Virus record (IMG/VR): IMGVR_UViG_3300006201_000009
DNA from: a virus
Lineage: Duplodnaviria; Heunggongvirae; Uroviricota; Caudoviricetes
Length of the DNA: 64,000 nt
Reading direction: 5' to 3' (one strand)
Shown here: positions 23,038 to 56,987 of the stretch, piece after piece
How the letters are laid out: the number at the start of each line of letters is the position of its first letter
How positions within the stretch are numbered: position 1 is the first letter of the stretch
Notes under the pieces: generated by a model
What the model was told of the DNA's origin: nothing
What the model saw: the letters and a program-made list of their open reading frames with translations, nothing else
The model's database searches: none
Made by a program: the position numbers and the translations under genes

Positions 23038-23120
23038 TGGTGGGAGAGGTTGGACTCGAACCAACGAAGCCGAAACGCCTGATTTACAGTCAGGTGCAAT
23101 TGCCGCTATGCGACTCTCCC
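23038..23120 (-). tRNA. tRNA-Tyr (GUA), type II with long variable arm
   Basis: Acceptor GGGAGAG/CTCTCCC, anticodon stem CCTGA/TCAGG loop CTGTAAA, variable arm ~13 nt, T loop GGTTCGAGTCC, CCA. Confidence 0.65.
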
Positions 23121-23166
23121 ATGTAGTAAGAGCATCCTACCTAAACATTGAACGAACCGCCCCAGG

Positions 23167-23200
23167 TGGACGGTGTTGGAGTCGAACCAACATCTCTCTT
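23167..23200 (-). other. tRNA 3'-half-like remnant (T arm + acceptor 3' strand + CCA) immediately after tRNA-Lys
   Basis: Minus strand reads ...GTTGGTTCGACTCCAACACCGTCCA with no 5' half. Confidence 0.4.
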
Positions 23201-23276
23201 TGGTACCCGCGGTGAGAATCGAACTCACGACCCTTTGATTAAAAGTCAAATGCTCTACCGACTGAGCTACGCGGAT
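23201..23276 (-). tRNA. tRNA-Lys (UUU)
   Basis: GCGTAGCTCAGTCGGTAGAGCA D arm; anticodon stem TTTGA/TCAAA loop CTTTTAA; T loop GTTCGATTC; CCA. Confidence 0.65.
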
Positions 23277-23550
23277 AAAAAACAAGACACACCGAGACCT
23301 TCTATGTACATAAAGTAGCCAAAAATGGCAGAGGGCAACCAACGTAACACCTATATCCGCTCCCAGTTGCTTTTGCGGAGGAGTATGCTATTTAAGCATA
23401 AATCATTTAGCTTTGCTAAAAGTCATCTAACAACGGTTAGAACGTGGAAAACTCGCCAGCGAGCAGTCCTCAACTATACTGTTAATCTTCGTAAAGTTGC
23501 TGTGTGTGTCTTTAATAATGCGATGTTAAAAGGAGTGTACTTAATCGCAT

Positions 23551-23624
23551 TGGCAGGGACGGATGGGCTCGAACCATCACTGCGGGAGTCAAAGTCCCGT
23601 GCGCTACCGTTACGCTACGTCCCT
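23551..23624 (-). tRNA. tRNA-Gln (UUG)
   Basis: Acceptor AGGGACG/CGTCCCT; anticodon stem CGGGA/TCCCG loop CTTTGAC; T loop GGTTCGAGCCC; CCA. Confidence 0.6.
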
Positions 23625-23898
23625 ATAAAGGCTTTAAGGTCAGCCAACCGCACATACTTAACCCGAAAAATACTCAGGGTTGGATATTTGCTCCCCGAAG
23701 GTTTTACTCGATACTCAAACACACAAAGGGAATTTTCACTCGTCTCGTGAAATTCGTTATCGAATCGGATTTTCATGAGCTCGCGTAGTGAGCTTCTAAA
23801 AATCTGATTTGATGGAAGGGCGTTGTGATACATTTGCTATAAGCAAGTGCCTAACAGTATGTATAAAAGTTAGCATTGCTGTTTGAGTATCGGAGTAG

Positions 23899-23978
23899 TG
23901 GTGGAGCTGTTGGGATTTGAACCCAAGTCCTACGAATTCACTTTGGTTTTAATCGTAGTCGAAACCTTTCTCAGCCCC
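23899..23978 (-). ncRNA. tRNA-like RNA with canonical acceptor stem, T arm and CCA but aberrant D/anticodon region
   Basis: GGGGCTG...TTGGGTTCAAATCCCAA CAGCTCC A CCA; central part folds as an 5-bp stem (TACGA/TCGTA) with a 17-nt loop rather than a cloverleaf. Confidence 0.4.
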
Positions 23979-23979
23979 A

Positions 23980-24055
23980 TGGTTGGCAAGGATGGAATCG
24001 AACCATCGGCAACTGGTTTATAAGACCAGCCCCATCACCACTTGGGTACTTGCCA
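23980..24055 (-). tRNA. tRNA with anticodon UAU (Ile-like, AUA-decoding)
   Basis: Acceptor TGGCAAG/CTTGCCA, U8A9, D stem CCCA/TGGG loop AGTGGTGA, anticodon stem CTGGT/ACCAG loop CTTATAA, T loop TTCGATT, A73, CCA. Confidence 0.6.
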
Positions 24056-24060
24056 ATATG

Positions 24061-24136
24061 TGGAGCTGGATGTCGGACTTGAACCGACAACCTATCGCTT
24101 ACAAGGCGATTGCTCTGCCAATTGAGCTAATCCAGC
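24061..24136 (-). tRNA. tRNA-Thr (UGU)
   Basis: GCTGGATTAGCTCAATTGGCAGAGC; anticodon stem ATCGC/GCGAT loop CTTGTAA; T loop GGTTCAAGTCC; CCA. Confidence 0.65.
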
Positions 24137-24138
24137 GT

Positions 24139-24216
24139 TGGTCACCGCAGAGGGGGTCGAACCCTCAAACTCCACCGTGAAAGGGTGGTGACTTTAGCCA
24201 TTTTGTCTATGCGGCG
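24139..24216 (-). tRNA. tRNA-Glu (UUC)
   Basis: Anticodon stem CCACC/GGTGG loop CTTTCAC; T loop GGTTCGACCCC; CCA; acceptor with one G-U. Confidence 0.55.
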
Positions 24217-24368
24217 ATAAAAATATATAGGCTGTTCCTCAAACTCCATTTAACGTATCGTTATTTTCCGGCGCCCCAGTCAATAACTTTATCCATCCTT
24301 TCCCCGTTTCAATGCGGGTGTCTGCTTTACACTTCACTTCGCGGTTAGTACGGCACCTATATATTTTT

Positions 24369-24515
24369 TGGTGACTCGAACAGGAATTGAACCTGTACAT
24401 CTATCCCGTTTCTCGGCTACATACTGCAATGCAGGGATGTCGCGAACATCGCCGTAACCTACGCTTTAAGGCTTACTGTTCCCTCAGGGGTGTTCTATCA
24501 TTGAACTATCGAGCC
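24369..24515 (-). ncRNA. 147-nt tRNA-like RNA: canonical acceptor, U8A9, D arm, T arm and CCA, with ~70 extra nt replacing/inside the anticodon-variable region
   Basis: 5' GGCTCGA-TA-GTTC-AATGATA-GAAC ... 3' ACAGG-TTCAATT-CCTGT-TCGAGTC-A-CCA; 7-bp acceptor pairing (one G-U); internal small hairpins (CCCTGAGGG, GCGATGTTCGC, CTGCATTGCAG). Confidence 0.45.
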
Positions 24516-24518
24516 AAA

Positions 24519-24608
24519 TGGCGGAGGGTGTAGGACTCGAACCTACGCTCCGAATGAACGGAGAACGGCTTAGCAAGCCGCGGCAGTACCAACTATGCTT
24601 AACCCTCC
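24519..24608 (-). tRNA. tRNA-Ser (GCU), type II
   Basis: Acceptor GGAGGGT/ACCCTCC; anticodon stem GCGGC/GCCGT loop TTGCTAA; variable arm CTCCG-TTCATT-CGGAG; T loop GGTTCGAGTCC; CCA. Confidence 0.65.
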
Positions 24609-24622
24609 AAGCGGGAGCATCG

Positions 24623-24886
24623 CTACTCCCAATATGGATATATTTCAGCATCCGACACGTCTCCGTGAGACCATTTTACTGCCTTTCCGGCGTGAACAAT
24701 GGGCTCATCTTCTTTGTCATCGAATGATTGTTGTACCTTTTGCGTTGCGGCTTCTTCATTTTTTGCAAACACAACTCGTTGTCCATATATTCTGCCGCCG
24801 TCAAAGTAGGTTCCAGAGTAGGGAACTGTGAATTTCTTTAATCCTTTAATCATAAAACACCTATTCTGTATTGAAATTTTCGCCAT
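24623..24886 (-). CDS. Hypothetical protein
   Basis: ORF only. Confidence 0.3.
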   Translation of the reverse strand: MAKISIQNRCFMIKGLKKFTVPYSGTYFDGGRIYGQRVVFAKNEEAATQKVQQSFDDKEDEPIVHAGKAVKWSHGDVSDAEIYPYWE

Positions 24887-25133
24887 TCGCAGATATAAAG
24901 GTTGTAACAGCTTTTGCTATGTCATTTTTTTCACCTTTGATAACGAGAGTAAGTTCAGTTTGATACGATTGCTTGCACTTAACTATTGCTATATTAAATC
25001 GCGAATGATTTCGTATGAACCATTCCAGTGCGTGACGAACAGGGACATACAGGTATTCGCCAAATGAACACGTGCGGTCATATTTATGCACGGAATTTAT
25101 GTGAAGCACTTTCTTTCTTTTCATATTGACCAC
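24861..25133 (-). CDS. Hypothetical protein
   Basis: ORF only. Confidence 0.3.
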   Translation of the reverse strand: MVNMKRKKVLHINSVHKYDRTCSFGEYLYVPVRHALEWFIRNHSRFNIAIVKCKQSYQTELTLVIKGEKNDIAKAVTTFISANGENFNTE

Positions 25134-25156
25134 CTTTTTTGAATAAAAGAGTACTT

Positions 25157-25378
25157 TTATTTAAGGTTACGCAAGATTGTTTTCTTGTCTATGTCACACA
25201 TCTCGCAAAGTTCATCAAACCAGTCAGACGAAAAGAATTTTTTCAGCTCTTTCATATTGAAGTCCTTGCATTCCGTGGCTTGTCCGTTCCGTAATGCTCG
25301 GAAATCTGAGATTGCTTGTAGCAATACTGCGGCAATCAATCTGCGAATGGTTGTTTGATCAACATACTGTGTGCTCAT
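25157..25378 (-). CDS. Hypothetical protein
   Basis: ORF only. Confidence 0.3.
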   Translation of the reverse strand: MSTQYVDQTTIRRLIAAVLLQAISDFRALRNGQATECKDFNMKELKKFFSSDWFDELCEMCDIDKKTILRNLK

Positions 25379-25402
25379 ATTTATGTATCCTTATAAATTT
25401 TT

Positions 25403-25491
25403 TGGCGGAAGCGGTGAGATTTGAACTCACGAACCCTTGCGGATTGCCAGTTTTCAAGACTGGTGCAATAAACCAAGCTCTGCCACACTTC
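25403..25491 (-). tRNA. tRNA-Ser (UGA), type II
   Basis: Acceptor GGAAGTG/CGCTTCC; anticodon stem CCAGT/ACTGG loop CTTGAAA; long variable arm; T loop GGTTCAAATCTC; CCA. Confidence 0.6.
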
Positions 25492-25502
25492 CATAGTAGG
25501 GT

Positions 25503-25974
25503 TTAACCCCACACGACGGCGCATAAACTTGCAAGTCGCGCTCTATATTCAAAGTCTTTCGGTAAAAAATTGCCGTACAAGAGCTTCATTTCCGAAATCA
25601 AAGCCTCTTCGCTTTCATAAGCTTGCTCAAACAGCGACGCATACCTCGGTAAACACATCAAAACCCAATCATCGTTCTCAACATCAACACCTATTTCGTT
25701 AATGTCTTTGATAAGAGGGGTAAAATCACCGTAAATATCGTTTCCGTATGACCATTTGTGACAGATTACACCTTGTTCCCAATTTTCTTTGAGATAATAT
25801 TGGCTATCGTCGCAAATGTATTGTCTAATGGCGTCGTATATATCTTCGCCTTCGTCGGGTTCAAGCTCAATGCCGTCTTTTTCTTTAATATATTCGCGGA
25901 ATTTTTCCACGTCGATTTCCTGAATTTTGACCGCAAGCCCTTTATCGCTCACGGCATAGCTGTGTGTACTCATA
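25503..25974 (-). CDS. Hypothetical acidic protein
   Basis: AAGGAG RBS before MSTHSY start; longer ORF-track version overlaps tRNA-Trp and is rejected. Confidence 0.4.
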
Positions 25975-25988
25975 ATTGCTCCTTTTTT

Positions 25989-26062
25989 TGGCAAGGGTGG
26001 GGCGAATTGAACGCCCATCAATGGTTTTGGAGACCACCGTCCTACCATTAAACGACACCCTT
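25989..26062 (-). tRNA. tRNA-Trp (CCA)
   Basis: A1-U72 acceptor AAGGGTG/CACCCTT; anticodon stem GTGGT/ACCAT loop CTCCAAA; T loop GCGTTCAATTCGC; CCA. Confidence 0.6.
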
Positions 26063-38166: not shown

Positions 38167-39711
38167 TTAACCCTTAACGGCTTGCTCTACGAGAGCGTAA
38201 CGTTCGCTGTTAAGTTGTTCAAGCAAGCACTCAAACGGGTCGGTGGAATTGCTGAGAACCATTTTGACAATGGCGGGACTGAAACCGCTTACCAGAGCAA
38301 CGCCGAGTTCGTTTTCTTTTACGGGGATAGTTCCCGTGCGGCTGCAAATATTCCAGAAAACCAAGCGGGGGAGTTTGTAGCCGAGCTCTGCATAACGCTT
38401 TGCGATAACAGAGAAAAGCTTTTCGTCAACCCTCGCATATCCATATCCTGATCGACGAGAAGATACCGCACAGGAATCAAATTCCATATCGGAGAGGATA
38501 AGGATATTTGCGGGCAGTTCACTCTGCTTCATGTGTGCTTTTATCGCAGTTGTTAATATTAAGTCAAACACAGCTTCGATGTTTGTGTTTGCAACTTCAT
38601 TATGGGTGCGAGCAATGCCTATTTTATCGCGAAGCGATTTGCCGCTCGCGAGGTTGACGAGTTGCGGATGTTCGCTGAACGTGATGTACTTATCTTTGAA
38701 CTGCCCCGAACTTCTTTCGGCAAAGTAAATTGCCAAAGCGTTGGCGACATCGAGGCAAGAAACGCCCGTACCACCAACCGTCGAAGTCATACTGCCAGAC
38801 CCGTCGGCTACGCAGATCGTGTTGCCGTTTTCTTTGACGTAATCGGGAAGTGCCTTCCACATTTCTTCAAGGGCGGTATCCTTGTCCAAAAGACCGCCCC
38901 AGCTTCCTTTGCTGTATTTGTGAACGATATCGTGAGGGAAGAGGACACCCGCATTGATTTTTGTTTCACCCCTTTCGAGCTTGGAAAGATACTCTCTACG
39001 GCGTTCTTCGTCGTTGCGCAAGAAAGCTTTGTTGTAGATAAGGTTCGCTCTCGACGGAACCGCTGCGTATTCGATCGCCGACCACTCACGGTTGCTCATC
39101 TTAACTTCTACTACGTTCGTATAAGAGCGCAGAGCGGAGAGCATTTTACGATACTGTCTCTCAGTGATGCCGAGCTGACCGATAAGCAGTTTTGCATAGC
39201 GGCGAGTTTCTGCGGAAGAAGCATTTGCGGACGGCATCCATTTTGCACACAGCGAAATCGGTTGTTTGCGACCATAATTGCTCATATCACTGTCCAGCTG
39301 CTCTTTGATGATTGCCACAACCTCGTTGTGAAGCGCGGTGTCGAGCAGAACGATGAGATTATCCCATCGAGTGTATTCGGGGATGAGCTTGAGAAGTTTC
39401 AACGCAACGGCAGGTTCTTCCTGAATAAGATATTCCATACCGATACGGAACAATCTGCGTTCACCAAGACCGCCACGAACATCGCCGGCATAGAACAGCC
39501 ACTTGATAGCGAGCAATTTATCTTCGTAATATGCCTTTGCAAATCTCGCTCTGATATTTGCAGGAACCTCGTTACGTAACGAAGACACCGCAAAGTTGAT
39601 GTCGAGCAAAGCCTTGCCCGAAGTACGATACCCAACCGCGCCGTTTTCGGTACGCGATTCGTTGAAGTCTTCGCCGAGCGTGCGTTTGAGATTGTCCATA
39701 AAGTTGTTCAT
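38167..39711 (-). CDS. rsr: Ro60/Rsr-like protein (TROVE-like N-terminal region + vWA domain with MIDAS)
   Basis: vWA MIDAS CVADGSGSM; ~515 aa; GGAGG RBS before MNNFMDNL; the 611-aa ORF-track version is an artefactual extension across two tRNA-like genes. Confidence 0.5.
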   Translation of the reverse strand: MNNFMDNLKRTLGEDFNESRTENGAVGYRTSGKALLDINFAVSSLRNEVPANIRARFAKAYYEDKLLAIKWLFYAGDVRGGLGERRLFRIGMEYLIQEEPAVALKLLKLIPEYTRWDNLIVLLDTALHNEVVAIIKEQLDSDMSNYGRKQPISLCAKWMPSANASSAETRRYAKLLIGQLGITERQYRKMLSALRSYTNVVEVKMSNREWSAIEYAAVPSRANLIYNKAFLRNDEERRREYLSKLERGETKINAGVLFPHDIVHKYSKGSWGGLLDKDTALEEMWKALPDYVKENGNTICVADGSGSMTSTVGGTGVSCLDVANALAIYFAERSSGQFKDKYITFSEHPQLVNLASGKSLRDKIGIARTHNEVANTNIEAVFDLILTTAIKAHMKQSELPANILILSDMEFDSCAVSSRRSGYGYARVDEKLFSVIAKRYAELGYKLPRLVFWNICSRTGTIPVKENELGVALVSGFSPAIVKMVLSNSTDPFECLLEQLNSERYALVEQAVKG

Positions 39712-39831
39712 AGTTACCTCCAATGAATTAAAATATGAGATTTTAACTCCAAGACGGGATTCAAAAAGAGATTTCAAGTCCTTGTTTTGTAACGTTGCTG
39801 TTACCGTCTTTGAGTTGATGGTACGAAAGAA

Positions 39832-39950
39832 TGGGAGCGGTGGGACTCGAACCCACGACCACGAGCTTAAAAGGCTATTCAGTAAAATTGCTGTGAGAGA
39901 TTTTACAAACCTCGTAGTGATACGTGCTCTACCAACTGAGCTACGCTCCC
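39832..39950 (-). ncRNA. Y-RNA-like tRNA mimic 1 (acceptor + D arm + T arm; anticodon arm replaced by 8-bp stem with 41-nt loop)
   Basis: GGGAGCG-TA-GCTCAGTTGGTAGAGC ... GTGGG-TTCGAGT-CCCAC-CGCTCCC-A; no CCA. Confidence 0.55.
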
Positions 39951-39956
39951 AAATGA

Positions 39957-40073
39957 TGGAGATGGTAGGACTCGAACCTACAACCTTCGGCACCCTATGC
40001 AAAAGTAAAGTTGCTGTATGAGCCTAACAAGACTCGTCTTTAACGACGCTCTATCCAGTTGAGCTACATCTCC
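39957..40073 (-). ncRNA. Y-RNA-like tRNA mimic 2
   Basis: GGAGATG-TA-GCTCAACTGGATAGAGC ... GTAGG-TTCGAGT-CCTAC-CATCTCC-A; expanded central region; no CCA. Confidence 0.55.
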
Positions 40074-45318: not shown

Positions 45319-46654
45319 AATGTTACACTCCTTGAATGTATGTATTTTTTTGAGCAATCGGTTGAGTATCCACGCCCGCCACGAGGAGGCTTGCTCATTG
45401 GGCGCATCGCCCCACATAACGTGGGGCATAAGGAGGAGAAAAATGAAAGAAGGGCAGAGATTATGCGGGTTTGTGCAAGTTGTCCAATAAAAAGGACACG
45501 AACCGTTCGAGGCATTTTTCGCCCCGTTTTGCGTAATGCGCCGCAATCTCGGACACTTGTGCCAGTGATACATTATCGGCTAAACACAACGCTGCCGAGC
45601 GTTCGGGCATCTCAAAGAGATACTTTTCCATAAACACCTCAAAGCGATTTTTATGTGGGTACGTCCACAAGCGTTAGGCAATTAGCAAAATCACACTCGC
45701 CACGGGAAGGCTTGCCTTTGAGTGCATAAAGAACGCCCCGCGCAATACTGCGCGAAGCGTTCCCATATTACAGCGTATTGCTACGCTAATTGTAAAGTTT
45801 TGATAATTCACGCTATTCAAAATCCGTTTCAGACGTACACCGAATACACGCTAACACCCCTTGGGGCATAGTCGCATACATACTCGCACGACGGGATTAC
45901 CTTCGATTTGACAAACATAACGCCGTTTGTCTTACCCACTTGGGGCAAGTAACGCTATGCTGGCGCACCATTGTACGAAAGTCGTAATAATGACATCACG
46001 CATAGACACACGTTGCACAAGCCGAGTTTAGGTTTGATGCCATACCTGTTGCCATTTTCACTATCTGACGCGCAAAGGGGCTTAATTCCGCGATTGCTTA
46101 ACCGACGCATTTTTGATTTGGCTGAATGTACAGCCTTATGCTTGCGCATATGCCACTCATCACTATACCCTGATGGTGAATAGGTCGAGCGCAAAAAGCA
46201 CTCAATGTTAGGCAAGTTCGCCGATATTACTATCGCCCACGCTACACCACGCGGAGGTTTGCCTATGTAGCGCAACACCAATGTGTGGACGTCCCTATTA
46301 AAGGGAACGCCCCACATAATTGAAAGTTAAACAAGTTTGTGTCTTGACTGTCCGCAAGTCATAGTTGTTGTAATGAACGCTATGCCGTCCACCCTTACGG
46401 GGCGCGTTTGGCACGCGACGCCCCATAGGTAATTAGTCCCTATGGTAACTGTTTTATATACGGTCGTGATGTGATGCACGACATAAAACCTAATTAAACG
46501 TAACGCAAGAGGTTTGTTTGCGTTGTGTCCGCTCACTTAAAGAGTAGCGGGGGGCGGGGTGTCCGTCCGTGTGGGCGGTTGCCGTGTCCGCTCACTTAAA
46601 GAGTAGCGGGGGGCGGGGTGTCCGTGTCATACGCTCGCGGGCGCACGGCAAACA

Positions 46655-46692
46655 CGGCAAAAAGAAAACCCCCGCGGGGGCGGGGGTTTAGG
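46655..46692 (-). terminator. Rho-independent terminator (GC hairpin CCCCCGC/GCGGGGG followed by U-tract on minus strand)
   Basis: aaaacccccgcgggggcgggggttt; on minus strand hairpin then TTTTCTTTTTG, just after the stop of 46705-47454. Confidence 0.55.
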
Positions 46693-46704
46693 TGGTTGCG
46701 GTGG

Positions 46705-47454
46705 TTATGCGTTAGCGGGTTGCGCTTGCTTGTATGTGGTGTATTTGCGTTGTATCGCTTGTAAATGCTCTTGTAGCGTTTTGCGGTGTATTTTCAAAAT
46801 GTCCGCTATTTGGTGTACGCTTTTACCGCTCAGCCGATAGCGTAAAATTTGCGCTTGTCGGCTTGTCAAATTTAACGCTTTAATCGTTGCGGTTACTTGC
46901 TTAAAGTCCGTTGCCGTTGGCATATCCCATTCGGCGGGTATTTCGTAGTAAAGCGTGTTGCCGTCCGCGCCGATTTCGTCCACATATACCCGCTTGTAGT
47001 CGTGTTGACGCTCGCCCATAATATAGCGGTTTACGGCTCTAAAACACGCCCGCAAAATGGTTGCGGGGTTGCCGTCCTTGTCTGTCTGTCCGTCCGCTGT
47101 CGCGTCTTGTAACGTCTTGCCGATATAGTCGCATAAAAACGCGCTCGCCGTTTGCGCTATGTCGTAGCCGTCCGACAACGGCGCGCCCGTCTTTTTGTTT
47201 TCGGTGATGTCCGCGACAAGTCCGCAATATAACGAGTATATAAAAGGCTGTCCGCCTTTTTGGTAGCAAGTTTTTAACGCTCTAATCGCTATACGCTCGC
47301 CCATTGTTTGCACGCTGTCCGCCGTGATAATTTCGGCGGGGTTTGCCGTGTCCGTTATGGGCGCGGGCGGGGTTTGCTTGCGGTTGCGCTTGCTTGCGGT
47401 TGCGGGGTTTGCTTGCCTTGCCGTCTTCGGCTGTTTGGTGTTGGTGGTTTTCAT
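46705..47454 (-). CDS. ECF-like sigma factor (region 2/region 4 with C-terminal HTH), high-GC gene
   Basis: C-terminal LTSRQAQILRYRLSGKSVHQIADILKIHRKTLQEHLQAIQRK (sigma region 4/LuxR-type HTH); GC content much higher than rest of phage. Confidence 0.45.
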   Translation of the reverse strand: MKTTNTKQPKTARQANPATASKRNRKQTPPAPITDTANPAEIITADSVQTMGERIAIRALKTCYQKGGQPFIYSLYCGLVADITENKKTGAPLSDGYDIAQTASAFLCDYIGKTLQDATADGQTDKDGNPATILRACFRAVNRYIMGERQHDYKRVYVDEIGADGNTLYYEIPAEWDMPTATDFKQVTATIKALNLTSRQAQILRYRLSGKSVHQIADILKIHRKTLQEHLQAIQRKYTTYKQAQPANA

Positions 47455-48467
47455 TTTTGTTTGTCCTTTGCCCTATATTTTGTTGACAACGGCGGGCGGG
47501 TGTTGTCGTGGTATAGTATAAAGGGCGGGCGGGGTGTTGTCAATGATTTTTGGCAAAATTTTTTCAAAAATATTTTTTCAAAACCTATTGACAACGGCGC
47601 GAAAAAGTGCCACCGCGTGGGGGTGCGCGTGCGCGTGTTATGCGCGGTTATTTCGTCGCGTGTGTGTGCGTGTCGCGTGGGTGTGGGTTTGCCCGCTGTC
47701 CGTGTCCGTCCGTCCGCTTGTCGGCGGTTTTGGCGGTTTGGTGTGGGCGTCCGTTTGGCTGTCGGCTGTCCGTGTGTGGGTGTGTTTGGTGTGGTGGTGT
47801 GGTGGTGTGGGTATGCGGGCGCGTGTTTTCCTTTACGGCTCACGGAATAACCGAAAACGCGCAACGGCTCACGGCTTGCGGGGGTCCGTGTGCTTGCGGT
47901 TGCGCTTGCCGTCCGTGTCCGTGTCGGCTGTTTTCGTCCGTCCGTCAAATATTATCTTTTTAACGTTGATAATATCGCCGTATAGTCGGGGGGTATTTTA
48001 CACGAAAACGGCAACCGAAAAACGGCGAACAGTGTGTGTCCGCTCACCATCACTCCCACAAACATTTCCCCGAACACCGACACCTCTTACCTCGGTGGAT
48101 CGTTTCGGAAACTTTCCCAATAGTGGGGGAGAATTTAGAAACGGGAATCTTGGCATTTTTTCTTGATCCATACAATCAATTTGTAAATTCTCCCGCACAG
48201 TAGGCATCTTTTCCGAAGACCTGCCAAATTCACAAAATAGGGCACATTTTACATGGCTCCGAACTGCACCCTTATTTGTGCCCGCAGCTGCTTTAGTAAC
48301 GGAGAGCTTCTTATATTATATATAGTAACAGTAAGCTCCCTTATATATAGCTTATAGTAACAGTAAGCTTACAGCGTATGCTCTCTTAGTTCAGAGTATA
48401 AAAGAAAAAAAATAAATAAAAAAAAGAAAGAAAACCTAAAATTTTTTTATTTTTTTTCGTAAAAACA

Positions 48468-48496
48468 CTTGACTTATGTCTAAATATGTTTTATAA
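48468..48496 (+). promoter_or_regulatory. Consensus sigma70 promoter TTGACTTATGTCTAAATATGTTTTATAAT heading the plus-strand gene block
   Basis: TTGACT, 17 nt, TATAAT exact; followed by ~300-nt leader before first plus gene. Confidence 0.6.
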
Positions 48497-48810
48497 TTAA
48501 AGGGTAATCTGAAGTGAATGAGATAATAAAGATATTCGCCTGATTGAAACCCATAGCCCCTCGGGCTGCAATCGACAAGAGTGCAATTACCCAGAGCTGC
48601 CTTGTTCCTATTGCTAACTGCGAGCGTCGTAAGCGGCGTCACAGCGAGCAGCCTATTAGGAAAAGTGGTAGCAAAATTGCTACTTTATTATCTCTTTCTT
48701 TTTAAGGGCACCAAATTCCGCCCCTACCATACGGGATAATTTTTTCGATTTGCAACCCCCAGGGTTGCATTTTTGATTTTTACCCCCTATAATTGGGGTT
48801 TGGAGGACGA

Positions 48811-50136
48811 ATGAAAGTTAAAGTTTGCGATGCTTTATGCGGCGCAGGCAAGACGGTATCTTGCATCAATATGATGAACTCCGACACGGAGCACAAATAT
48901 ATATTTGTAACGCCGTATCTCAACGAAGTAGACCGTATTAAAAATGCTTGTACGGACAGGGGGTTCGTATCCCCCGAAAAAACTTACGACAGCCACTTTT
49001 CAAAGATACGAGATTTACCTAAGTTGCTCGCGGCTGGCAAGAATATAGTCAGCACTCACGCACTCTTCTCATGTTATACGGATGAGATCAAAGACTTGAT
49101 CCGAGAACAAGGATACATACTTGTTCTTGATGAGGTAATAGATTTGTTCCAGCCGGTAGATATAGACCGCGGCGATATTGACTTCCTTAAACGCAACAAG
49201 ATTGCCAGAGAGGAAGGGGATAATATCATCTGGGAAGACGATGACTATAATGGTGTAGCGTTCAGCGAAGTGATGAGGTTGTCAAAGTCCAGAGATATGG
49301 TCAACTACGACGGATCGTTCTACTTCTGGGCGTTACCGATAGATGTGTTTAACTGTTTCTCTGGTGTGTACGTGCTAACTTATCTGTTTGAATACCAGCT
49401 CCTAAAATACTTTTTTGAAGTGAACGGTGTTGAGTATGAACTCATAGGCACGACCAAGAAGAACGGTACGTATCAATTCTGCCCGTTGGACGAAATGAAT
49501 AGGGCGCAGGATTTACGGGAAAAGATACATATCAATATGAGCGAACGCTTTAACGAAATAGGATATGAAAACTTCTCTCTCTCGTCCGGTTGGTTCGAGC
49601 GAGCTGAAAGAGAAGAAGGGCAGCCCAAGTTGGCTGTTTTACAAAACAACTTATACAACATATTTAGACACAAGGGAGTGGGTACAAACGATAAAATGTG
49701 GACGACACTCAACAAGTACAGAAAGTATTTGAAGGGCAAGGGATACGCAAACAACTTCCTGACGTTCAATCGCCGCGCATCAAATGACTACGTTGAAAAA
49801 CATCATTTAGCATATTGTCTCAACGTGTATATGATGCCTTGGATGAAGAACTATCTGGTGAGACTCGGCATCGATGACATCAACCAAGATATGTATGCGC
49901 TGTCGGTTCTTATTCAATGGATATTCAGGTCTGGGATACGGAACGGAGAGGAAATCTGGGTGTACGTGCCGAGCGGACGCATGAGGTATCTGCTTAAAAC
50001 TTGGCTTGATAATCTTGCCGAGGGTAACGATCTTAAAGAAATTAAATTCAGTATGAAGAACTTAAATAGGCTTGGTGTGGCTGCCTACCAAATGAAAAAA
50101 GCAGCGAGGACTAAAAATAAGGAGGCTAACAAATAA
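48811..50136 (+). CDS. P-loop NTPase (Walker A GAGKT, Walker B-like VLDEV); function unassigned
   Basis: CDALCGAGKTVSC; YILVLDEVIDL; GGAGG RBS before MKVKV. Confidence 0.4.
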   Translation: MKVKVCDALCGAGKTVSCINMMNSDTEHKYIFVTPYLNEVDRIKNACTDRGFVSPEKTYDSHFSKIRDLPKLLAAGKNIVSTHALFSCYTDEIKDLIREQGYILVLDEVIDLFQPVDIDRGDIDFLKRNKIAREEGDNIIWEDDDYNGVAFSEVMRLSKSRDMVNYDGSFYFWALPIDVFNCFSGVYVLTYLFEYQLLKYFFEVNGVEYELIGTTKKNGTYQFCPLDEMNRAQDLREKIHINMSERFNEIGYENFSLSSGWFERAEREEGQPKLAVLQNNLYNIFRHKGVGTNDKMWTTLNKYRKYLKGKGYANNFLTFNRRASNDYVEKHHLAYCLNVYMMPWMKNYLVRLGIDDINQDMYALSVLIQWIFRSGIRNGEEIWVYVPSGRMRYLLKTWLDNLAEGNDLKEIKFSMKNLNRLGVAAYQMKKAARTKNKEANK

Positions 50137-50324
50137 TGAAGACTTGCGAAAACTGCTATTGGGCTGACAAATGCCCCGATGCCGGTAAGCGCTGTGAATA
50201 TTACGATCCGATTATCGGCGGAGAAAACATTGTACGCAGAGAGTATGAAGAAGCGTTGACGGAGCGCGTCGAAGAATACAACGACCTCGTGCGCGAACAA
50301 CAAGACGATTATTACGGAGATTAA
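50136..50324 (+). CDS. Small Cys-rich protein
   Basis: CENCYWADKCPDAGKRC. Confidence 0.3.
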   Translation: MKTCENCYWADKCPDAGKRCEYYDPIIGGENIVRREYEEALTERVEEYNDLVREQQDDYYGD

Positions 50325-53126
50325 ATGAAGACAAGGTCAATAAGGATATTATCACTGGAATCTAAGGACATATACGCCGCGATGAATTTGGTAAACGGAG
50401 ACGGGCGCGGCTATAACATAAGGAACAAAGACGGAGCCATTTCGCTACGCAAATTCGAGAACACGCTCGATTGGAGCTTGGACACAATCAAACTGCAAGA
50501 AGAATACGAAAAGGCTGTTCGGCGCAGAGACTTCTACTTTATGGTAAACAAGCGGAAGTACACACAGGTTATCATCAATGTAAAATTCTCTTATTCATAT
50601 AAGGAGTTTAACAAAGTCGGGAAGAACGTGTTTGTGCGCGACGGATATGACTTCAGAGAATGCGTATTTACGGATGGAGTTTGCATTAAAGACGGTTTGC
50701 TTATAGGCATTCAAACAAACGTAGAAGTATTGAACGCAGCACCGAAGGATTTAATCCCGTCATACTTTACATACGCAGACGGTTGCTATCAACAGACAGG
50801 CGCAATACCTGTCATAAAAAATAAGGCGGACTTGCGGCAAGAACTTTACGAGAACGGTTTTATGTGCGACGGTGTTAAGTACGTGAGATACAAGAGAAGT
50901 GCGGGTAGCAGCAGAGTCGGTAAGTGCTTGTTCGTAAATGAGATTGTAGCAAAAAGAATGGCTCGTTGGGATAGGTGCGGATTAAGTATTCGCGACAACG
51001 CGCCGATAGACCTCGCTTCCTACGAAGCGTATATCGCATTACCTATGAGCAGCATTATAGACACAATGATTATTGAGCCAGAAAACATTCTCATTGTTGA
51101 CGATTTTGAAAGTACATTCAAAGACAGGGTTATTGCCGTAGAAGAAAAAGACGGAAGACTCACCGCCAGCGAAAAAGATGTCGAAGTATCTAACAATATC
51201 TGGGACGGAGAGTCGTTGCTTGACATAAGTATGTTCGGCAAATATGCGAGCAAAGGTATGGTCTTGCTGAGAAACCGTTTCTTTAAGACGTGCGCGTTCA
51301 ATGCAAATATACAAAAATGGTTTGCAGACAACGGTGTTACGAGCGTTGATCAGCTTAATGGCTTCACACTTGCTACGGATATTTCGCAAGTAAAATTGAT
51401 AACCACTCCGAGCAGCGTTAAGTATTTGAAGTTCGGCAGTATGGAAGACTGGCTTGCAAACATAGAACACACATTCGGCGTTGTTAAATATGAAAAGGAA
51501 ACTCACTTCTTTGATGGGCGAATGGTGCAATGTCACTACCAGCTTTTGAACACATTGCAATTAGCATATAAAGACGTAGAAGAACTTTTGAAACCGTCAT
51601 TGGATTATGTTGGCTCTATACGACAAGACCCCGCCGTGCTTCGTTATCATATCGGTTACGCATTCAAAAATGAAGGCGAAGATGAAGAGATAAGCTCGCT
51701 GACAACGAAGAACGAAATTATATTCAAGTTGCTTGGTATCAACGACAAGTTCAGTTGCACAAAAATCTATAAAGAGTTCCGCGATGCGATTGTTAAAGGG
51801 TTCTTCCGTAATTTGAAACGTGGACACATTTTACTCAATGGCAATTATTCAACGTTGCTCGGAAACGGATTAGAGTTGTTGAAGCAAGCAATTGGAACAT
51901 TCGATGGGTCGAGTGAAATCGGCGTAGGGAATATACATAGCCACAGGTTCGATTATGGTAAGACTGTTCTGGGTTCACGTAGTCCTCACGTTACGATGGG
52001 TAACATACTACTCTCAACTAACGTTGCAAATGCGGACATCGACACTTATTTCAATATGACCAACGAAATCGTTTATATCAATTCGATAGGCGAGAATATT
52101 TTGCAAAGGTTATCCGGCGCAGATATGGACAGCGACACAATGTTGTTGACCGATAATGAGTTGTTGATCAAGACGGCACAAAAGAATTATAATGTTTACT
52201 TGGTTCCTACGAACTGTGTGAGCGCACAAAAGACAAAACGCAGATACAACTCCAAGGACAAAGCAGACCTCGACGTTAGAACGAGCGTCAATAAAATTGG
52301 CGAGATAGTAAATCTTTCGCAACAATTAAATAGTTTGTATTGGGAGCGTCTTAATGGTGGAACGAGCATTGATTCAAACAAAGAGTTGTACTGGGATATT
52401 TGCAAATTGGATGTACTGTCAGGCGTAGAAATTGACAAGGCTAAGAAAGAGTTTACTATAGACAGCGGAAAGGAAATCGACATTCTTAAGCGCAAATATC
52501 ACTTGGAGGAAGATGGTAAAACTTTGAAGCCAATGTTCTTCAAGATGATTACGACCGAAAATGGATACGCACTTCCGCCAGATACGATGTACAGATATTT
52601 TGAAACGCCAATGGATTATTTACAGAAGATTATATCTTCGGCAAACTACCGCCAAGCACGCTTAACCAATAAAGACATCATTCCTTTAATGGACATCATT
52701 AAAAAGCCGAGTGGGAAAAGCGGGGCATACAACACCGTTCGGGATAAAATTATCGAGATGATTAAATTTTATAAGACGCGCATCTCAGAAACGTACATTG
52801 GGTATGACGACAAAGATAAGATAGGCAAGCAGCTTGCACGCGAAATAGCAATGCAATTAAAGCAAGAATGTGAAAATGCCATAAGCAAAATGTCATCGCA
52901 CGAATATCTCATGTATCTGGTTCTTAAGGAAGTAGAAAAAAAGGAAAATCGCTCGATTAAAAATTTAATGTTTGAGATTATGTTCGGTAAGCCGGATGAG
53001 ACATTTATGAAGATGGTCGCAGCGAGTAGGGAGTGTGTGTATATGCTCGTTGAAGACGCAGAGGGAGACGAAAAATATTATGATTTTTCCTTCAAAAGAG
53101 CCGCGTCATCCGAGGAATTTTCGTAA
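50325..53126 (+). CDS. Large hypothetical protein (933 aa)
   Basis: Long ORF; no confident polymerase/structural motifs recognised by eye. Confidence 0.4.
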   Translation: MKTRSIRILSLESKDIYAAMNLVNGDGRGYNIRNKDGAISLRKFENTLDWSLDTIKLQEEYEKAVRRRDFYFMVNKRKYTQVIINVKFSYSYKEFNKVGKNVFVRDGYDFRECVFTDGVCIKDGLLIGIQTNVEVLNAAPKDLIPSYFTYADGCYQQTGAIPVIKNKADLRQELYENGFMCDGVKYVRYKRSAGSSRVGKCLFVNEIVAKRMARWDRCGLSIRDNAPIDLASYEAYIALPMSSIIDTMIIEPENILIVDDFESTFKDRVIAVEEKDGRLTASEKDVEVSNNIWDGESLLDISMFGKYASKGMVLLRNRFFKTCAFNANIQKWFADNGVTSVDQLNGFTLATDISQVKLITTPSSVKYLKFGSMEDWLANIEHTFGVVKYEKETHFFDGRMVQCHYQLLNTLQLAYKDVEELLKPSLDYVGSIRQDPAVLRYHIGYAFKNEGEDEEISSLTTKNEIIFKLLGINDKFSCTKIYKEFRDAIVKGFFRNLKRGHILLNGNYSTLLGNGLELLKQAIGTFDGSSEIGVGNIHSHRFDYGKTVLGSRSPHVTMGNILLSTNVANADIDTYFNMTNEIVYINSIGENILQRLSGADMDSDTMLLTDNELLIKTAQKNYNVYLVPTNCVSAQKTKRRYNSKDKADLDVRTSVNKIGEIVNLSQQLNSLYWERLNGGTSIDSNKELYWDICKLDVLSGVEIDKAKKEFTIDSGKEIDILKRKYHLEEDGKTLKPMFFKMITTENGYALPPDTMYRYFETPMDYLQKIISSANYRQARLTNKDIIPLMDIIKKPSGKSGAYNTVRDKIIEMIKFYKTRISETYIGYDDKDKIGKQLAREIAMQLKQECENAISKMSSHEYLMYLVLKEVEKKENRSIKNLMFEIMFGKPDETFMKMVAASRECVYMLVEDAEGDEKYYDFSFKRAASSEEFS

Positions 53127-55874: not shown

Positions 55875-56987
55875 ATGTCAGAACAAAATGCAGGACGCCC
55901 CCTCGGGGGTAATATGCTGGAGCAGACAAAGATTTTGTCAAAGGCTCCCATAAAGATAAATAGCAATTTTCAAATGCCAAAGATAAGAGTGCAAGAGAGC
56001 AATTCGTCTCGCGAGTATGTCTGCACTTGCTGTGGCAAAAGCTACCAAAGGCAAGATGGGAACTTTCTAAAAGCGGGAAGTTCTATTCTATGGCAAGGCA
56101 ACAACGGATATATGCCAATATGTAAAAGCTGTGCCGAGACCATATTCAATGCGCTTGTTGACTTTTATAGCGGAAACGAGGAACACGCGCTACATCATTG
56201 GTGCGGGATTTTTGATTACCCATATGATTTAGAGGCGTCATCTATGACGGCTGTTCACGTTCAGCCTGGAAGATCGAGAGTTTCTCTATATCCATCTAAG
56301 CTCAATACAAAACAAGTACGCAGCCGTGGGACGAGCTATCTTGATACTGTTCGCAATGAGGCGGGTGAGGCTACACGTATTCATACGGTTAATGACATAG
56401 TTTTATCAGAAACCAATAAAGATGGGTTTATTGTAACGAAGCCTATGATAAAGAAATGGGGATACGGGCATAAACCAGAGGAATACGAATGGCTCGAAGA
56501 GCAAGAAGAAGATTGGCGTTCGCGTGTCGAATGTAAAAGCAAGGCGCAAGAGGAGCTGATAAGAACTATATGCTTATCGCAACTTAATATCCAAAAAGCT
56601 CAACAAGGCGGCGGCAAAGTAGCCGAAGCAATGAAAGCCTTCCAAGATTTGCTTGCCTCGTGTAATTTGCAACCGCGTCAAAATGCAAATGATGATCTCG
56701 CCGAACAAAACACGTTTGGTACTCTTATCAAGCAATTTGAGCAAGAAAAACCATTACCACAAGCAGAGCCGGAATGGGAAGACGTTGACGGCATCAAGAA
56801 ATATATCGATACATTTTTCTTTGGGCACCTTTGCCATTTGGTTGATATTAAAAACGATAACGAAGAACAGTATAGGCGCGAGATGGAGAAATACACAGTT
56901 AAGCCGCCCGAATACGACGGGGAAGAAGATGCGGTCGATATATCCTTGCTTGAAAAGTATAGCAACAAAGGAGATAAGAAGGAATGA
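55875..56987 (+). CDS. Possible terminase small subunit / DNA-binding protein (zinc ribbon)
   Basis: Position immediately upstream of TerL with overlapping stop/start; CTCCGK...CKSC. Confidence 0.3.
   Translation: MSEQNAGRPLGGNMLEQTKILSKAPIKINSNFQMPKIRVQESNSSREYVCTCCGKSYQRQDGNFLKAGSSILWQGNNGYMPICKSCAETIFNALVDFYSGNEEHALHHWCGIFDYPYDLEASSMTAVHVQPGRSRVSLYPSKLNTKQVRSRGTSYLDTVRNEAGEATRIHTVNDIVLSETNKDGFIVTKPMIKKWGYGHKPEEYEWLEEQEEDWRSRVECKSKAQEELIRTICLSQLNIQKAQQGGGKVAEAMKAFQDLLASCNLQPRQNANDDLAEQNTFGTLIKQFEQEKPLPQAEPEWEDVDGIKKYIDTFFFGHLCHLVDIKNDNEEQYRREMEKYTVKPPEYDGEEDAVDISLLEKYSNKGDKKE

Follow-up and report, generated by a model that had tools for sequence, protein, structure and literature searches.

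A conserved divergent control region with predicted HDV-like ribozymes and a candidate packaging site in an SPbeta-like temperate phage

The GC-rich, strand-skewed region between the two gene arms of a 64,000-nt stretch of viral DNA (IMG/VR record IMGVR_UViG_3300006201_000009; hereafter the window) is the conserved control region from which the two arms of an SPbeta-like temperate phage diverge, rather than a segment gained from elsewhere. Every related prophage examined has the same gene, promoters, terminator, repeats and skewed tract. Read along the minus strand, the region runs from an invariant block through a G/T tract, a promoter, an early regulator, its terminator and one to three hairpin repeats into a putative RNA-processing module with three ribozymes. 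We consider below what the sequence and its relatives say of each part, and why the spacer may mark the packaging terminus.

Conservation among SPbeta-like prophages

The relatives are SPbeta-like prophages in Christensenella-like gut MAGs and carry homologues of yonV, yonO, yonJ and TerL; kinship to SPbeta itself is seen in TerL (44% to YonF), in a YonV homologue (40%) and in a YonO homologue (E 3e-8). The regulator gene has 262 homologues, one of them present on 304 contigs of up to 926 kb, and its neighbourhood is constant, with the regulator on one side of the spacer and YonV_C, a 62-aa ORF, a 933-aa protein, a YonJ-like protein, HU and an integrase on the other. The window and the relative L002 have the island sequence, repeats, terminator and promoters in common, and in all eight relatives the sense strand is C-rich and T-poor between -600 and -200 and again between +0 and +200.

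These observations run against a proposal of the sequence-only reading, that the region is a regulatory cassette gained by horizontal transfer. In such a case its composition would be foreign and its bounds would be set by the 13-nt repeat TGTGTCCGCTCAC. Such an origin would fit a GC content of 51-63% against 43% for the window, the unusual third-position usage, the presence of the 13-mer at 46524, 46583 and 48035, and the many short contigs (1-1.5 kb) that bear the regulator gene, although the latter can be attributed to the flanking repeats. The entire module, composition included, is however kept at the same locus in every relative examined, down to 62% protein identity; the TGTGTCCGCTCAC copies in the relatives' repeats vary independently of the block copy, and the segment contains no recombinase. 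We therefore regard acquisition as very improbable.

Composition, strand skew and repeats

GC content is 43.1% over the whole window, 63.4% at 46500-46704, 51.5% in the regulator ORF (46705-47454) and 62.7% at 47600-47950, with maxima of 0.63-0.64 in 200-nt windows. A GC-rich island had been claimed over ~2.5 kb; the island is real but spans only ~1.45 kb (46500-47950), because 45670-46500 has 47% GC and no skew. The reported G/T skew of the plus strand held up when composition and skew were computed: 47300-47950 is 9.8% A, 21.2% C, 35.8% G and 33.2% T, A makes up just 7.1% of 47600-47950, and skew within the island peaks at +0.34 (GC) and -0.78 (AT). The pentamer GTCCG is concentrated beyond chance, with 28 of its 55 copies in the window falling within 46500-48060 (2.4% of the window) and on one strand throughout, whereas CGGAC is absent from that interval against 30 copies window-wide.

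Two exact copies of a 42-nt direct repeat also exist, 7 nt from where they had first been placed, at 46525-46566 and 46584-46625 (minus strand, period 59). Each contains a hairpin preceded by a C-rich run, and copy number varies from one to three among relatives (three in L004, one in L014). The interval holding these hairpin repeats (46505-46704) folds with z = -4.6.

Runs of three or more Gs are enriched about threefold (29 observed, 10 expected), and all seven GGGCGGG copies of the window fall within the island, as had been noticed. Both features would suit a G-quadruplex-forming regulatory element on the top strand. Against this, the canonical motif (G3+N1-7)x4 occurs nowhere in the window on either strand, so that the supposed quadruplex-like tracts were not borne out, and the G-runs are scattered, some of them lying within coding sequence, hairpins or the terminator. 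We give a quadruplex element almost no credence.

Predicted ribozymes and a conserved non-coding RNA

The region 45350-46520, for which no convincing ORF had been noted, harbors on the minus strand three HDV-like ribozymes, so assigned by structure and covariation and with cleavage predicted, together with a conserved non-coding RNA. None of the three reaches the 44-bit gathering threshold of RF02682, with 31.3 bits (E 0.0013) for ribozyme A, 17.6 bits for B and a partial match of 16.3 bits for C. Ribozyme A (46208..46273; 80.3 bits with the search model R1) is of the full type with P4, and all five of its helices form, with compensatory changes. Ribozyme B (45674..45725; R1 27.1 bits, E 1.3e-4) is minimal, lacking P4, and its P1.1 has U-A/C-G in place of C-G/C-G, a compensatory change in a pseudoknot that lies outside the model. 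Ribozyme C (45350..45405; R1 25.0 bits, E 4e-4) sits in the 5' UTR of a 263-aa gene starting at 45321; its P1 (GCGCCC/GGGCGT), P3, P1.1 and P2 (TGAGCAA/TTGCTCA) all form, and orthologues carry a compensatory change in P1. Between B and C the ORF list has a small variable ORF of 69 aa on the same strand (45461..45670); relatives have another ORF in its place, 56 aa long in L002 and 116 aa long in L014.

The HDV-like fold is defined by a nested double pseudoknot of P1, P2, P3 and P1.1, with P4 dispensable. When checked sequence by sequence, 13 of 13 ribozyme copies form a P1 of 6-7 bp, a P3 of 3 bp and a P2 of 6-7 bp. Across these 13 copies from five genomes, 95.2% of cells are paired, compared to 31-46% when the partners are slid, and eight pairs have changed on both sides, including P1.1 and P2 pairs outside the search model; covariation thus supports P1, P1.1, P2, P3 and P4. 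The pair closing P1 at the cleavage site is G.U in 12 copies and G-C in the remaining one, and a J4/2 cytosine, invariant in the alignment, precedes the 3' strand of P2 by 2-4 nt in all 13.

With RF02682 (drz-Fpra type) and the theta ribozymes (PMC10879173), these elements have in common the nested double pseudoknot P1/P1.1/P2/P3(/P4), the G.U at the cleavage site, an L3 of 7 nt (UCCNCGU), the conserved J4/2 C and the gut-phage setting. Theta ribozymes, however, were selected and named for an adjoining tRNA, whereas a plain hairpin precedes each cleavage site here; ARAGORN and Rfam found no tRNA in 40.1-64 kb, and assignment as theta ribozymes (tRNA within ~5 nt of the cleavage site) was rejected. 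Lacking a link to a tRNA, the three fall into the group to which the theta-ribozyme study ascribed 'unknown biological functions' (PMC10879173). They further differ from both groups in standing in tandem within 920 nt, where they delimit the non-coding RNA and early-operon cistrons.

The body of that RNA (~480 nt; 45726..46207, minus strand) was delineated in alignments of relatives and lies between ribozymes A and B. Its core (~45800-46120) is almost invariant, gene callers run on the relatives placed no gene at its position in any of them, and it ends in a hairpin 4 nt ahead of the ribozyme B cleavage site. A second conserved non-coding segment (46274..46520, minus strand; alignment columns ~330-590; absent in L014) lies upstream of ribozyme A and is likewise closed off by a long hairpin ahead of the cleavage site.

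Inside the body, 46046..46120 (minus strand) resembles RAGATH-16 (RF03047), an orphan motif found near self-cleaving ribozymes; at 19.1 bits the match does not reach the gathering score of 65.6, and the motif is only partly present, while bona fide RAGATH-16 (81-85 bits) occurs in other phage contigs with the same pattern. Common to the two are GGAAUUAAGCC and AGAUAGUGAAAAU in the same order and the association with ribozymes in phage DNA. Unlike RAGATH-16, the motif here lacks the first hairpin and is embedded in the longer (~480 nt) near-invariant RNA.

If active, the ribozymes would cut the early transcript at 46273, 45725 and 45405, each time just past a stable hairpin. Three products would result, all of them with a 5'-OH ribozyme cap: a ~548-nt RNA made up of ribozyme A and the ~480-nt body, a small mRNA with a single cistron, and the message for the genes that come next. 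Owing to its 5'-OH and 2',3'-cyclic-phosphate ends, the excised RNA would, we propose, be a ready substrate for RtcB-type ligation or circularisation.

The sigma-like regulator

The regulator gene (46705..47454, minus strand; 249 aa) belongs to a region that sits, as the sequence-only reading stated, where the transcribed strand switches. That reading took it for an ECF-like sigma factor, and a sigma-like character is supported, in that the C-terminal HTH is of the sigma-4/LuxR type and the top Foldseek matches are sigma factors. By sequence, the protein carries a LuxR/GerE-type HTH: it scores 38.1 bits (E 1.2e-9) against PF00196 (GerE; cut-off 23.5) and 16.5 bits, under the cut-off, against Sigma70_r4_2, with weak NCBIfam matches to SigH and ECF families. 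All HTH matches are limited to residues 180-245, profile matches in the PDB (RhlR, SdiA and similar) cover the HTH alone, and none of the sigma region-2 models matched. The N-terminal 40 aa are of low complexity and vary among homologues.

The predicted fold, by contrast with these local matches, appears sigma-like over its full length. An AlphaFold2 model of moderate confidence (pLDDT 64) places four helices at residues 48-153, and Foldseek ranks SigH (5e-5) and the ECF sigma factor SigL (1e-3) highest, with alignments of ~200-228 columns that take in the whole chain at TM-scores of ~0.25, low values that we ascribe to differing domain orientations. The regulator is thus like ECF and SigH-type sigma factors in its C-terminal four-helix HTH (GerE; Sigma70_r4_2 weakly), like LuxR-GerE regulators in having a GerE-type HTH at the C-terminus, and, in its two-domain helical model, alignable with sigma-2 and sigma-4 of SigH, SigL, SigE and SigB; it departs from both groups in lacking a region-2 sequence match and in its own 40-aa low-complexity N-terminal tail.

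The 'foreign' codon usage attributed to this gene is a real bias (GC3 0.60, T3 0.11), but one common to all orthologues. Transcription would start from a sigma-70-type promoter (47515..47543, minus strand; TTGACA-17-TATACT, 11/12 matches; TTGACA-17-TATAAT at the same position in relatives) and end at an intrinsic terminator kept in relatives (46666..46689, minus strand; a 10-bp stem followed by TCTTTTT).

The divergent spacer and the plus arm

Upstream of the regulator promoter lies a non-coding tract, G/T-rich on the top and C/A-rich on the bottom strand (47546..47950), whose composition is conserved among relatives and whose sequence is not. It holds ~12-13 oriented GTCCG copies, against 1-6 in relatives, and neither of its strands folds more stably than shuffled versions do (z = -0.7 and -1.1). 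Back-to-back sigma-70-type promoters flank it, and it adjoins a unique 310-bp block (47940..48260), near-invariant in alignments of relatives and a candidate pac/DTR core. The block carries the motif GGGGGGTATTTTACA (47988-48002), which occurs once in the window and recurs in MT835469 and every relative. It also includes an imperfect inverted repeat of 38 nt (48104-48217) and, on the minus strand, a hairpin that resembles a terminator (48051-48021).

On the plus-arm side, an operator-like 32-nt tandem repeat of 2.5 copies (48294..48370), kept in L002, is located upstream of the promoter of the yonV/yonO arm (sigma-70-type, TTGACT-17-TATAAT, 48469..48497, 11/12 matches). A conserved ~270-nt leader (48498..48775) follows, ending in a terminator-like hairpin (48751-48769) just 5' of the start codon of a yonV-like gene (48793-50136; 40% identical to YonV, E 6e-96). 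Next come the 62-aa ORF, between the yonV-like and yonO-like genes (span 48793..53126), and the yonO-like gene (50325-53126), all on the plus strand; the last is predicted to encode a single-chain RNA polymerase, with 20% identity to YonO over 535 aa, a GADMDSD motif aligning with FDNDGD of SPbeta, and tblastn matches to genes annotated 'RNA-dependent RNA polymerase'.

A tract of this composition between two strong promoter matches might serve transcription alone. In one version, the C-rich, G-/U-poor sense strand, both ahead of the regulator gene and inside it, would act as an insulator, e.g. Rho-utilisation-like, that stops read-through between the divergent promoters; in the other, CGGAC and GTTGTCAA would be binding sites for the sigma-like protein or a repressor. 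The setting between promoters of 11/12 matches each is in keeping with this, as are a sense strand of 42-47% C and 14-20% G with little structure, the copies of TTGACAAC/GTTGTCAA and palindromes adjoining the promoter, and a bias that runs through the regulator's own transcription unit to the hairpin repeats. We nevertheless find a purely regulatory spacer unlikely: the predicted promoters include none from which the tract would be read in sense, its sequence and motif counts are poorly conserved in relatives, and this reading accounts neither for the matching C-rich tract that MT835469, SPbeta and Perkons have on the opposite side nor for the contact with the Perkons DTR.

The same poor conservation could indicate functionless filler, grown by slippage or duplication of short units under a local mutational bias, in a spacer constrained in length alone. 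The tract is indeed unconserved and indel-rich between conserved flanks, has no structure signal, and shares units such as TTGCGGTTGCGC with the regulator's variable N-terminal tail. Yet the composition is kept in all relatives despite the sequence turnover, similar skewed tracts recur at the corresponding position even in the distant phages SPbeta and Perkons, and the tract is identical among near-identical prophages, which argues that it is not actively unstable. Filler, too, seems to us an improbable account.

A candidate packaging terminus

The reading we prefer, tentatively and as a serious possibility just short of an even chance, is that the G/T tract forms the sub-terminal flank of a pac/DTR site. 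A packaging terminus was among the options raised for this region at the outset, and the support gathered for it is indirect, through synteny with mapped termini. The SPbeta pac site has been mapped near yonR-yonP (PMC8270828), which on the SPbeta gene map is the divergent spacer adjoining yonO. Perkons, a Psychrobacillus phage, has 264-bp DTRs identified by PhageTerm (PMC13245101), with the yonP-like and YonO-like genes 1.4 kb downstream of them. The Clostridioides difficile phage phiCD211 has 378-bp DTRs (PMC5557969), with a minus arm of regulators to one side of its record ends and, to the other, a plus arm that extends to HU, an exonuclease and TerL (at 9.75 kb). In these three phages with homologous terminases, the termini thus map to the equivalent spacer, ~9 kb upstream of TerL; from the near-invariant block, TerL is 9.0 kb away here and 8.6 kb in SPbeta.

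The window shares with the three phages homologous packaging and 'yon' genes (TerL, YonV and the YonO-like RNA polymerase) and a topology in which a minus regulator arm, a large non-coding spacer and a plus arm leading to exonuclease, HU, TerS and TerL ~9 kb away follow one another. With SPbeta and Perkons it also shares a switch from G-rich to C-rich top strand within the spacer. GC skew goes from up to +0.34 to -0.15 to -0.20 in the window, from +0.48 to +0.57 to -0.46 to -0.62 in MT835469, and from +0.46 and +0.70 to -0.31 in SPbeta, and in Perkons the values are +0.57 to +0.81 where the sequence meets the right DTR and -0.33 to -0.44 beyond the left one. The ends of the phiCD211 record show no clear bipartite skew.

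Several points do not sit easily with this picture. In PMBT24, the pac site determined by PhageTerm lies 9.8 kb from the YonO-like gene (PMC11035940), so that a pac site beside yonO is not a universal rule. In the window family just one half of the switch is strong, the yonO-distal one, whereas the stronger half in Perkons and SPbeta is yonO-proximal. The window family further differs in having a spacer that is GC-rich (55-64%) rather than AT-rich, and a first minus-arm gene that encodes a sigma-like protein rather than the Xre-type YonR. Contig ends near the region are many but scattered in position, and the breaks can be put down to the 42-nt repeats. A metagenome scan with the 15-mer GGGGGGTATTTTACA returned matches that were too unspecific.

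The tract might instead belong to a replication origin, where a stable R-loop or D-loop would displace the G-rich top strand, much as happens in the mitochondrial CSB regions and the origin of ColE1; a rightward RNA over 47600-47950 would prime DNA synthesis, and the oriented repeats and invariant block would bind an initiator. Strong keto-richness and A-poverty are the composition expected of an often single-stranded strand, short oriented repeats (GTCCG) exist, MT835469 has ~7 iteron-like ATTATGAAYA copies at the centre of its switch, and SPbeta replication is uncharacterised (PMC8270828). The polarity of the switch, G-rich on the left and C-rich on the right, is however opposite to that of a bidirectional origin; there is neither a good plus-strand promoter leading into the tract nor a recognisable initiator gene beside it, and no AT-rich unwinding element accompanies the repeats inside the tract. 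An origin at this place is, in our view, doubtful.

Discussion

Under the packaging-terminus reading, synteny suggests that terminase would begin its work within the divergent spacer and, most probably, inside the invariant block. In a pac/DTR layout, the strand running 5' to 3' toward the end would be the G/T-rich one. Three consequences, which are not mutually exclusive, may follow for the tract. The oriented GTCCG(T/C) copies could be a landing array for the small terminase subunit, although a conserved TerS array is hard to square with the drop in GTCCG from ~12 to 1-6 in relatives, unless TerS co-varies. The G/T-rich, 3'-ended strand would have the orientation needed by Chi-like or RecA-loading sequences and could protect or recombine the freshly injected end. 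Finally, repeated single-strandedness of the 3' tail would drive C->T and A->G changes, and these would account for a strand that is rich in keto bases and poor in A and C, a bias that reaches synonymous sites in the neighbouring gene.

There are precedents for such a layout: T7 terminal repeats are adjoined by sub-terminal arrays of short repeats, and Chi sites are oriented. The tract would resemble both in placing short oriented repeats and strand asymmetry beside a packaging end, with the G/T-rich strand as the one ending 3' at the terminus; it has no sequence relationship to either. A bolder reading, in which two HDV-like ribozymes excise a ~550-nt RNA from an early SPbeta-like transcript and, separately, the tract is a telomere- or Chi-like end-protection array at the packaging terminus, is in our view rather unlikely.

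SPbeta-like phages are large prophages and common in Firmicutes, yet their pac site, origin and YonO promoter have still to be defined. For the packaging site there is now a concrete candidate, marked at the syntenic position in four distant members by a unique conserved block, a single-copy motif and a bipartite switch in skew. As for the ribozymes, their positions suggest a function, namely splitting an early polycistronic transcript into separately stabilised units and freeing a highly constrained non-coding RNA. If true, this would be a natural counterpart to the ribozyme insulators of synthetic biology, would reveal a new class of large phage non-coding RNA with ribozyme-dependent biogenesis, and would give RAGATH-16-like RNAs a defined transcript context.

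An SPbeta-like phage and its conserved divergent locus

The genome under study (43% GC) is divided into a minus-strand arm (1-47454) and a plus-strand arm that runs from 48793 onward. Along with a 62-aa ORF, genes on the plus arm specify a homologue of YonV (40% identity with the SPbeta protein, E 6e-96), a 933-aa YonO-like single-chain RNA polymerase, a YonJ-like exonuclease, a tyrosine integrase, TerL (44% identity with YonF of SPbeta, E 2e-170) and a portal protein. The YonO-like protein is 20% identical to SPbeta YonO over 535 aa (E 3e-8), its GADMDSD lining up with the metal-binding motif, and its tblastn matches are genes annotated 'RNA-dependent RNA polymerase'. Judging from these homologues of YonV, YonO, YonJ, integrase, TerL and portal, the phage is an SPbeta-like temperate phage. 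Its relatives are prophages within contigs of up to 926 kb, and both matches in the genome collection are MAGs named 'uncultured Christensenella sp.'. A search of 50,697 deposited phages, blastn included, found no DNA similarity, and a tblastn search of deposited phages with the regulator gave no match; regulator scans of viral contigs and of genomes returned two loci each, all cut at contig ends.

Elsewhere in the minus arm, ARAGORN called 14 genes in a tRNA array (21892-26062, minus), which also contains an 80-nt stretch matching the Rfam model for tmRNA (23899-23978, 69.4 bits), far too short for a tmRNA. Two further Rfam tRNA-model matches of 117-119 nt (39832-39950 and 39957-40073, minus; 50.6 and 51.7 bits), not called by ARAGORN, sit at the 5' end of ORF 38167-40002 (DUF2828 and DUF7788, PHROG 'RNA-binding protein'). 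They may represent tRNAs with introns, or else tRNA-like (Y-RNA-like) partners of the protein encoded by that ORF.

At the 47454 end of the minus arm lies a 249-aa regulator gene (46705-47454, minus) with 262 homologues. Every retrieved context showed the same order, namely the regulator gene, a spacer of 1.3-1.6 kb and the divergent yonV/yonO arm, and the related prophage contig L002 has the repeats, terminator, promoters, skewed tract and ORF-less DNA in common with the window. In some prophages a 63-aa cysteine-rich (zinc-ribbon-like) ORF precedes yonV (L002 6418-6591); it is missing as a clean 174-bp indel in others, as the comparison of L002 with the window and with a second prophage contig, L004, shows.

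Composition of the island

The sequence-only reading had described 45670-48200 as a GC-rich, strand-skewed island, possibly acquired from elsewhere. The anomaly is real and narrower than proposed, since 45670-46500 has 47% GC and no skew. GC stands at 63% in both 46500-46704 and 47600-47950 and at 51.5% in the ORF; the top strand of 47600-47950 contains 7% A, with GC skew up to +0.34 and AT skew of -0.78. Within 46500-48060 lie 28 of the 55 window copies of GTCCG, all on one strand, and all seven copies of GGGCGGG. G-runs are enriched about 3-fold, yet the canonical G-quadruplex motif is absent from both strands of the whole window, so that the suggested quadruplexes find no support. Foreign origin is likewise contradicted by the same arrangement and composition at this locus in every relative retrieved. 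All eight relatives compared, down to 62% protein identity, have a sense strand rich in C and poor in T, both from about -600 to -200 and over the 200 nt past the stop codon, and the regulator gene itself has a T content of 15-19%. The odd codon usage (GC3 0.60, T3 0.11) was correctly noticed; because the composition bias is common to all eight, it is a family trait rather than a foreign one.

The exact 42-nt repeat was confirmed, at 46525-46566 and 46584-46625. Each unit consists of a C-run followed by a hairpin, with one to three copies in relatives, and the 200 nt past the regulator stop codon fold with z = -4.6. When aligned units were compared by eye, a C-G pair of the stem had become U-G or U-A in one lineage, changes that fit a role in a minus-sense RNA. 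Because of these repeats, many assemblies break here. The 13-mer TGTGTCCGCTCAC (plus; 46524, 46583 and 48035) occurs in both units, in the second with one mismatch, as well as in the invariant block at 47940-48260, and therefore brackets the GC-rich segment; this correspondence between repeats and block is not kept in relatives.

The regulator and flanking transcription signals

Sequence matches of the regulator are confined to its C-terminal 55 residues (GerE/LuxR, 38 bits; weak sigma region 4, SigH and ECF). In an AlphaFold2 model built with 13 homologues (pLDDT 64), four helices make up an N-terminal domain and four more a C-terminal HTH; the best Foldseek matches of this model in the PDB are SigH (5e-5) and the ECF sigma factor SigL (1e-3), then SigB, SigE and SigH of M. 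tuberculosis, the sigma-factor alignments spanning 200-228 columns. On the strength of this model the sigma-like assignment made from sequence alone appears reasonable; none of the region-2 models matched the sequence.

A predicted promoter (TTGACA-17-TATACT, 47543-47515, minus) precedes the gene and an intrinsic terminator (46689-46666, minus) follows it. On the other side, the predicted promoter of the yonV arm (48469-48497, plus; 11/12 matches, as for the first) leads into a conserved leader of ~270 nt, closed by a terminator-like hairpin (48751-48769) that immediately precedes the yonV-like start. The leader region (48469-48792, plus) has no Rfam match, and promoter, leader and hairpin together could act on the yonV/yonO operon as an attenuator or antitermination switch. 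Upstream of this promoter, a 32-nt tandem repeat of 2.5 copies (48294-48370) and A/T-rich palindromes, conserved in L002, look operator-like (48294-48474).

A predicted ribozyme-delimited RNA module

Taken as a whole, the sequence-only observation was largely correct; what is new here is a non-coding RNA module delimited by ribozymes. An Rfam E-value scan of the ORF-less DNA found three HDV-like ribozymes on the minus strand, A (46273-46208, 31.3 bits), B (45726-45674, 17.6 bits) and C (45404-45373, 16.3 bits), all below the gathering score of 44 of the F. prausnitzii HDV ribozyme family. When the five copy-A orthologues were used to build a covariance model, R1, its matches in the window were A, B and C (80.3, 27.1 and 25.0 bits, respectively) and no others; in relatives it picked out the corresponding sites. 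Across 13 copies, 95% of cells are paired, compared with 31-46% when partners are slid; eight pairs show double changes, and none of 500 shuffles reached the covariation score. All copies form P1, P3 and a 6-7-bp P2, the last with compensatory variants; the P1.1 C-G pair is U-A in copy B, and both P1.1 and P2 lie outside the search model. A G.U is present at the cleavage site in 12 of the 13, and a C stands immediately before the 3' strand of P2 in all of them. Because no tRNA lies nearby, they fall outside the definition of theta ribozymes (PMC10879173). A weak R1 match in the distant relative MT835469 (22942-22994, minus; 19.6 bits, E 0.012) may be another HDV-like ribozyme.

A stable hairpin precedes each predicted cleavage site. 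Cleavage would yield (i) ribozyme A with a ~480-nt RNA (46273 to 45726), (ii) ribozyme B with a small variable ORF and (iii) ribozyme C with the mRNA of the downstream genes. Prophages with regulators 62-85% identical to one another share about 250 nt of RNA (i) without any difference; variation in the core of this RNA is too low to judge covariation or establish a structure, although a few hairpins carry compensatory changes. RNA (i) also contains a RAGATH-16-like motif (19 bits in the window), and the shared pattern recovered bona fide RAGATH-16 (81-85 bits) from other phage contigs. These are two unrelated IMG/VR contigs, L019 (3321-3485, 7645-7716) and L020 (89-161, 3831-3994), which also carry RAGATH-36 (96-111 bits); their RAGATH RNAs adjoin tRNA genes, and RAGATH-16 lies within ~150 nt of a contig end in both.

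The G/T-rich tract and the invariant block

The G/T-rich tract (~47546-47950) lies between two back-to-back promoters, and no predicted promoter reads across it. Structured RNA can be dismissed, as neither strand folds better than shuffled sequence (z = -0.7 and -1.1). The long ORFs 47451-47948 (minus), 47308-47850 (plus) and 47534-48166 (plus) are composition artefacts, because stop codons are missing from a strand poor in A and from its T-poor complement, and many indels separate the relatives here. The tract is indel-rich across relatives while its composition is kept, and it is improbable that it is functionless filler; nor is it likely to be purely a regulatory spacer for the flanking promoters. 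Contingency-type hypervariability is ruled out by its identity among near-identical prophages. The repeat unit TTGCGGTTGCGC(TTGC) occurs at 47372-47409, in DNA of the regulator's variable low-complexity N-terminal tail, and at 47888-47909 in the non-coding tract; the tail therefore seems to be made from the same repeat material.

In the adjoining block (47940-48260) even the most divergent relative shows hardly any change, and variation is too low for covariation to be judged. The block's element GGGGGGTATTTTACA recurs in all relatives and also in MT835469, a phage with a YonO of only 47% identity; with one occurrence in the window, it is ruled out there as a multi-copy phage promoter. This element (47988-48002, plus) corresponds to a motif, GGGGGG(A)TA(N)TTTTACA, that the window family and MT835469 have in common, and a second ATTTTACA lies 260 nt downstream (window 48249-48256, plus); the MT835469 positions are 3513-3527 and ~4345-4368. 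G5-6+TA strings recur, in inconsistent orientation, in the Perkons DTR and the SPbeta yonP-yonR spacer. The SPbeta P_YonO region, placed via published primers, shares no convincing motif with the window.

A possible packaging terminus

DNA ends have been mapped in three relatives whose terminases are homologous, and in each of them they fall in the equivalent divergent spacer. The SPbeta pac site has been placed 'between or around yonR and yonP' (PMC8270828), 8.6 kb from TerL on the gene map; the Psychrobacillus phage Perkons has DTRs of 264 bp, identified with PhageTerm (PMC13245101), with 1.4 kb separating them from the yonP-like and YonO-like genes downstream; and C. difficile phage phiCD211 has 378-bp DTRs (PMC5557969), its record ending in the minus arm of regulators on one side and, on the other, in the plus arm that reaches TerL at 9.75 kb. 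The invariant block of the window lies 9.0 kb upstream of TerL. PMBT24 is an exception, with its pac site 9.8 kb from the YonO-like gene (PMC11035940). Enterocloster phage records have AT-rich, uninformative ends, and a metagenome scan with a 15-mer yielded no physical ends, the pattern being too unspecific (1 of 120 loci homologous).

In four phages the top strand switches from G-rich to C-rich inside the spacer: up to +0.34 and then -0.15 to -0.20 in the window, +0.48 to +0.57 and -0.46 to -0.62 in MT835469, +0.46 and +0.70 and then -0.31 in SPbeta, and, in Perkons, +0.57 to +0.81 abutting the right DTR and -0.33 to -0.44 after the left one. At the known ends of Perkons, it is the G-rich strand that runs 5' to 3' into each terminus; phiCD211, in contrast, has no clear skew. 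That the tract is instead a replication origin, as the sequence-only reading had also offered, we regard as unlikely. In MT835469, a phage of 27% GC, about seven iteron-like ATTATGAAYA copies (~2980-3100) lie exactly between the G-rich and C-rich tracts.

Position, conservation pattern, orientation and the absence of structure or coding are observed features. Among the functions initially suggested, a packaging terminus is best supported by the comparative evidence; we give it somewhat less than an even chance. The invariant block would then be the pac/DTR core and the G/T tract its sub-terminal flank, for which three non-exclusive roles would fit the orientation. The oriented GTCCG(T/C) copies may be a landing array for TerS, whose putative gene spans 55875-56987, or the tract may provide a Chi-like or RecA-loading strand, 3'-ended at the DNA end. 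It may also be a mutational footprint, with C->T and A->G changes building up on the 3' tail bared by end resection, and this would account for the bias extending to synonymous sites of the adjacent gene.
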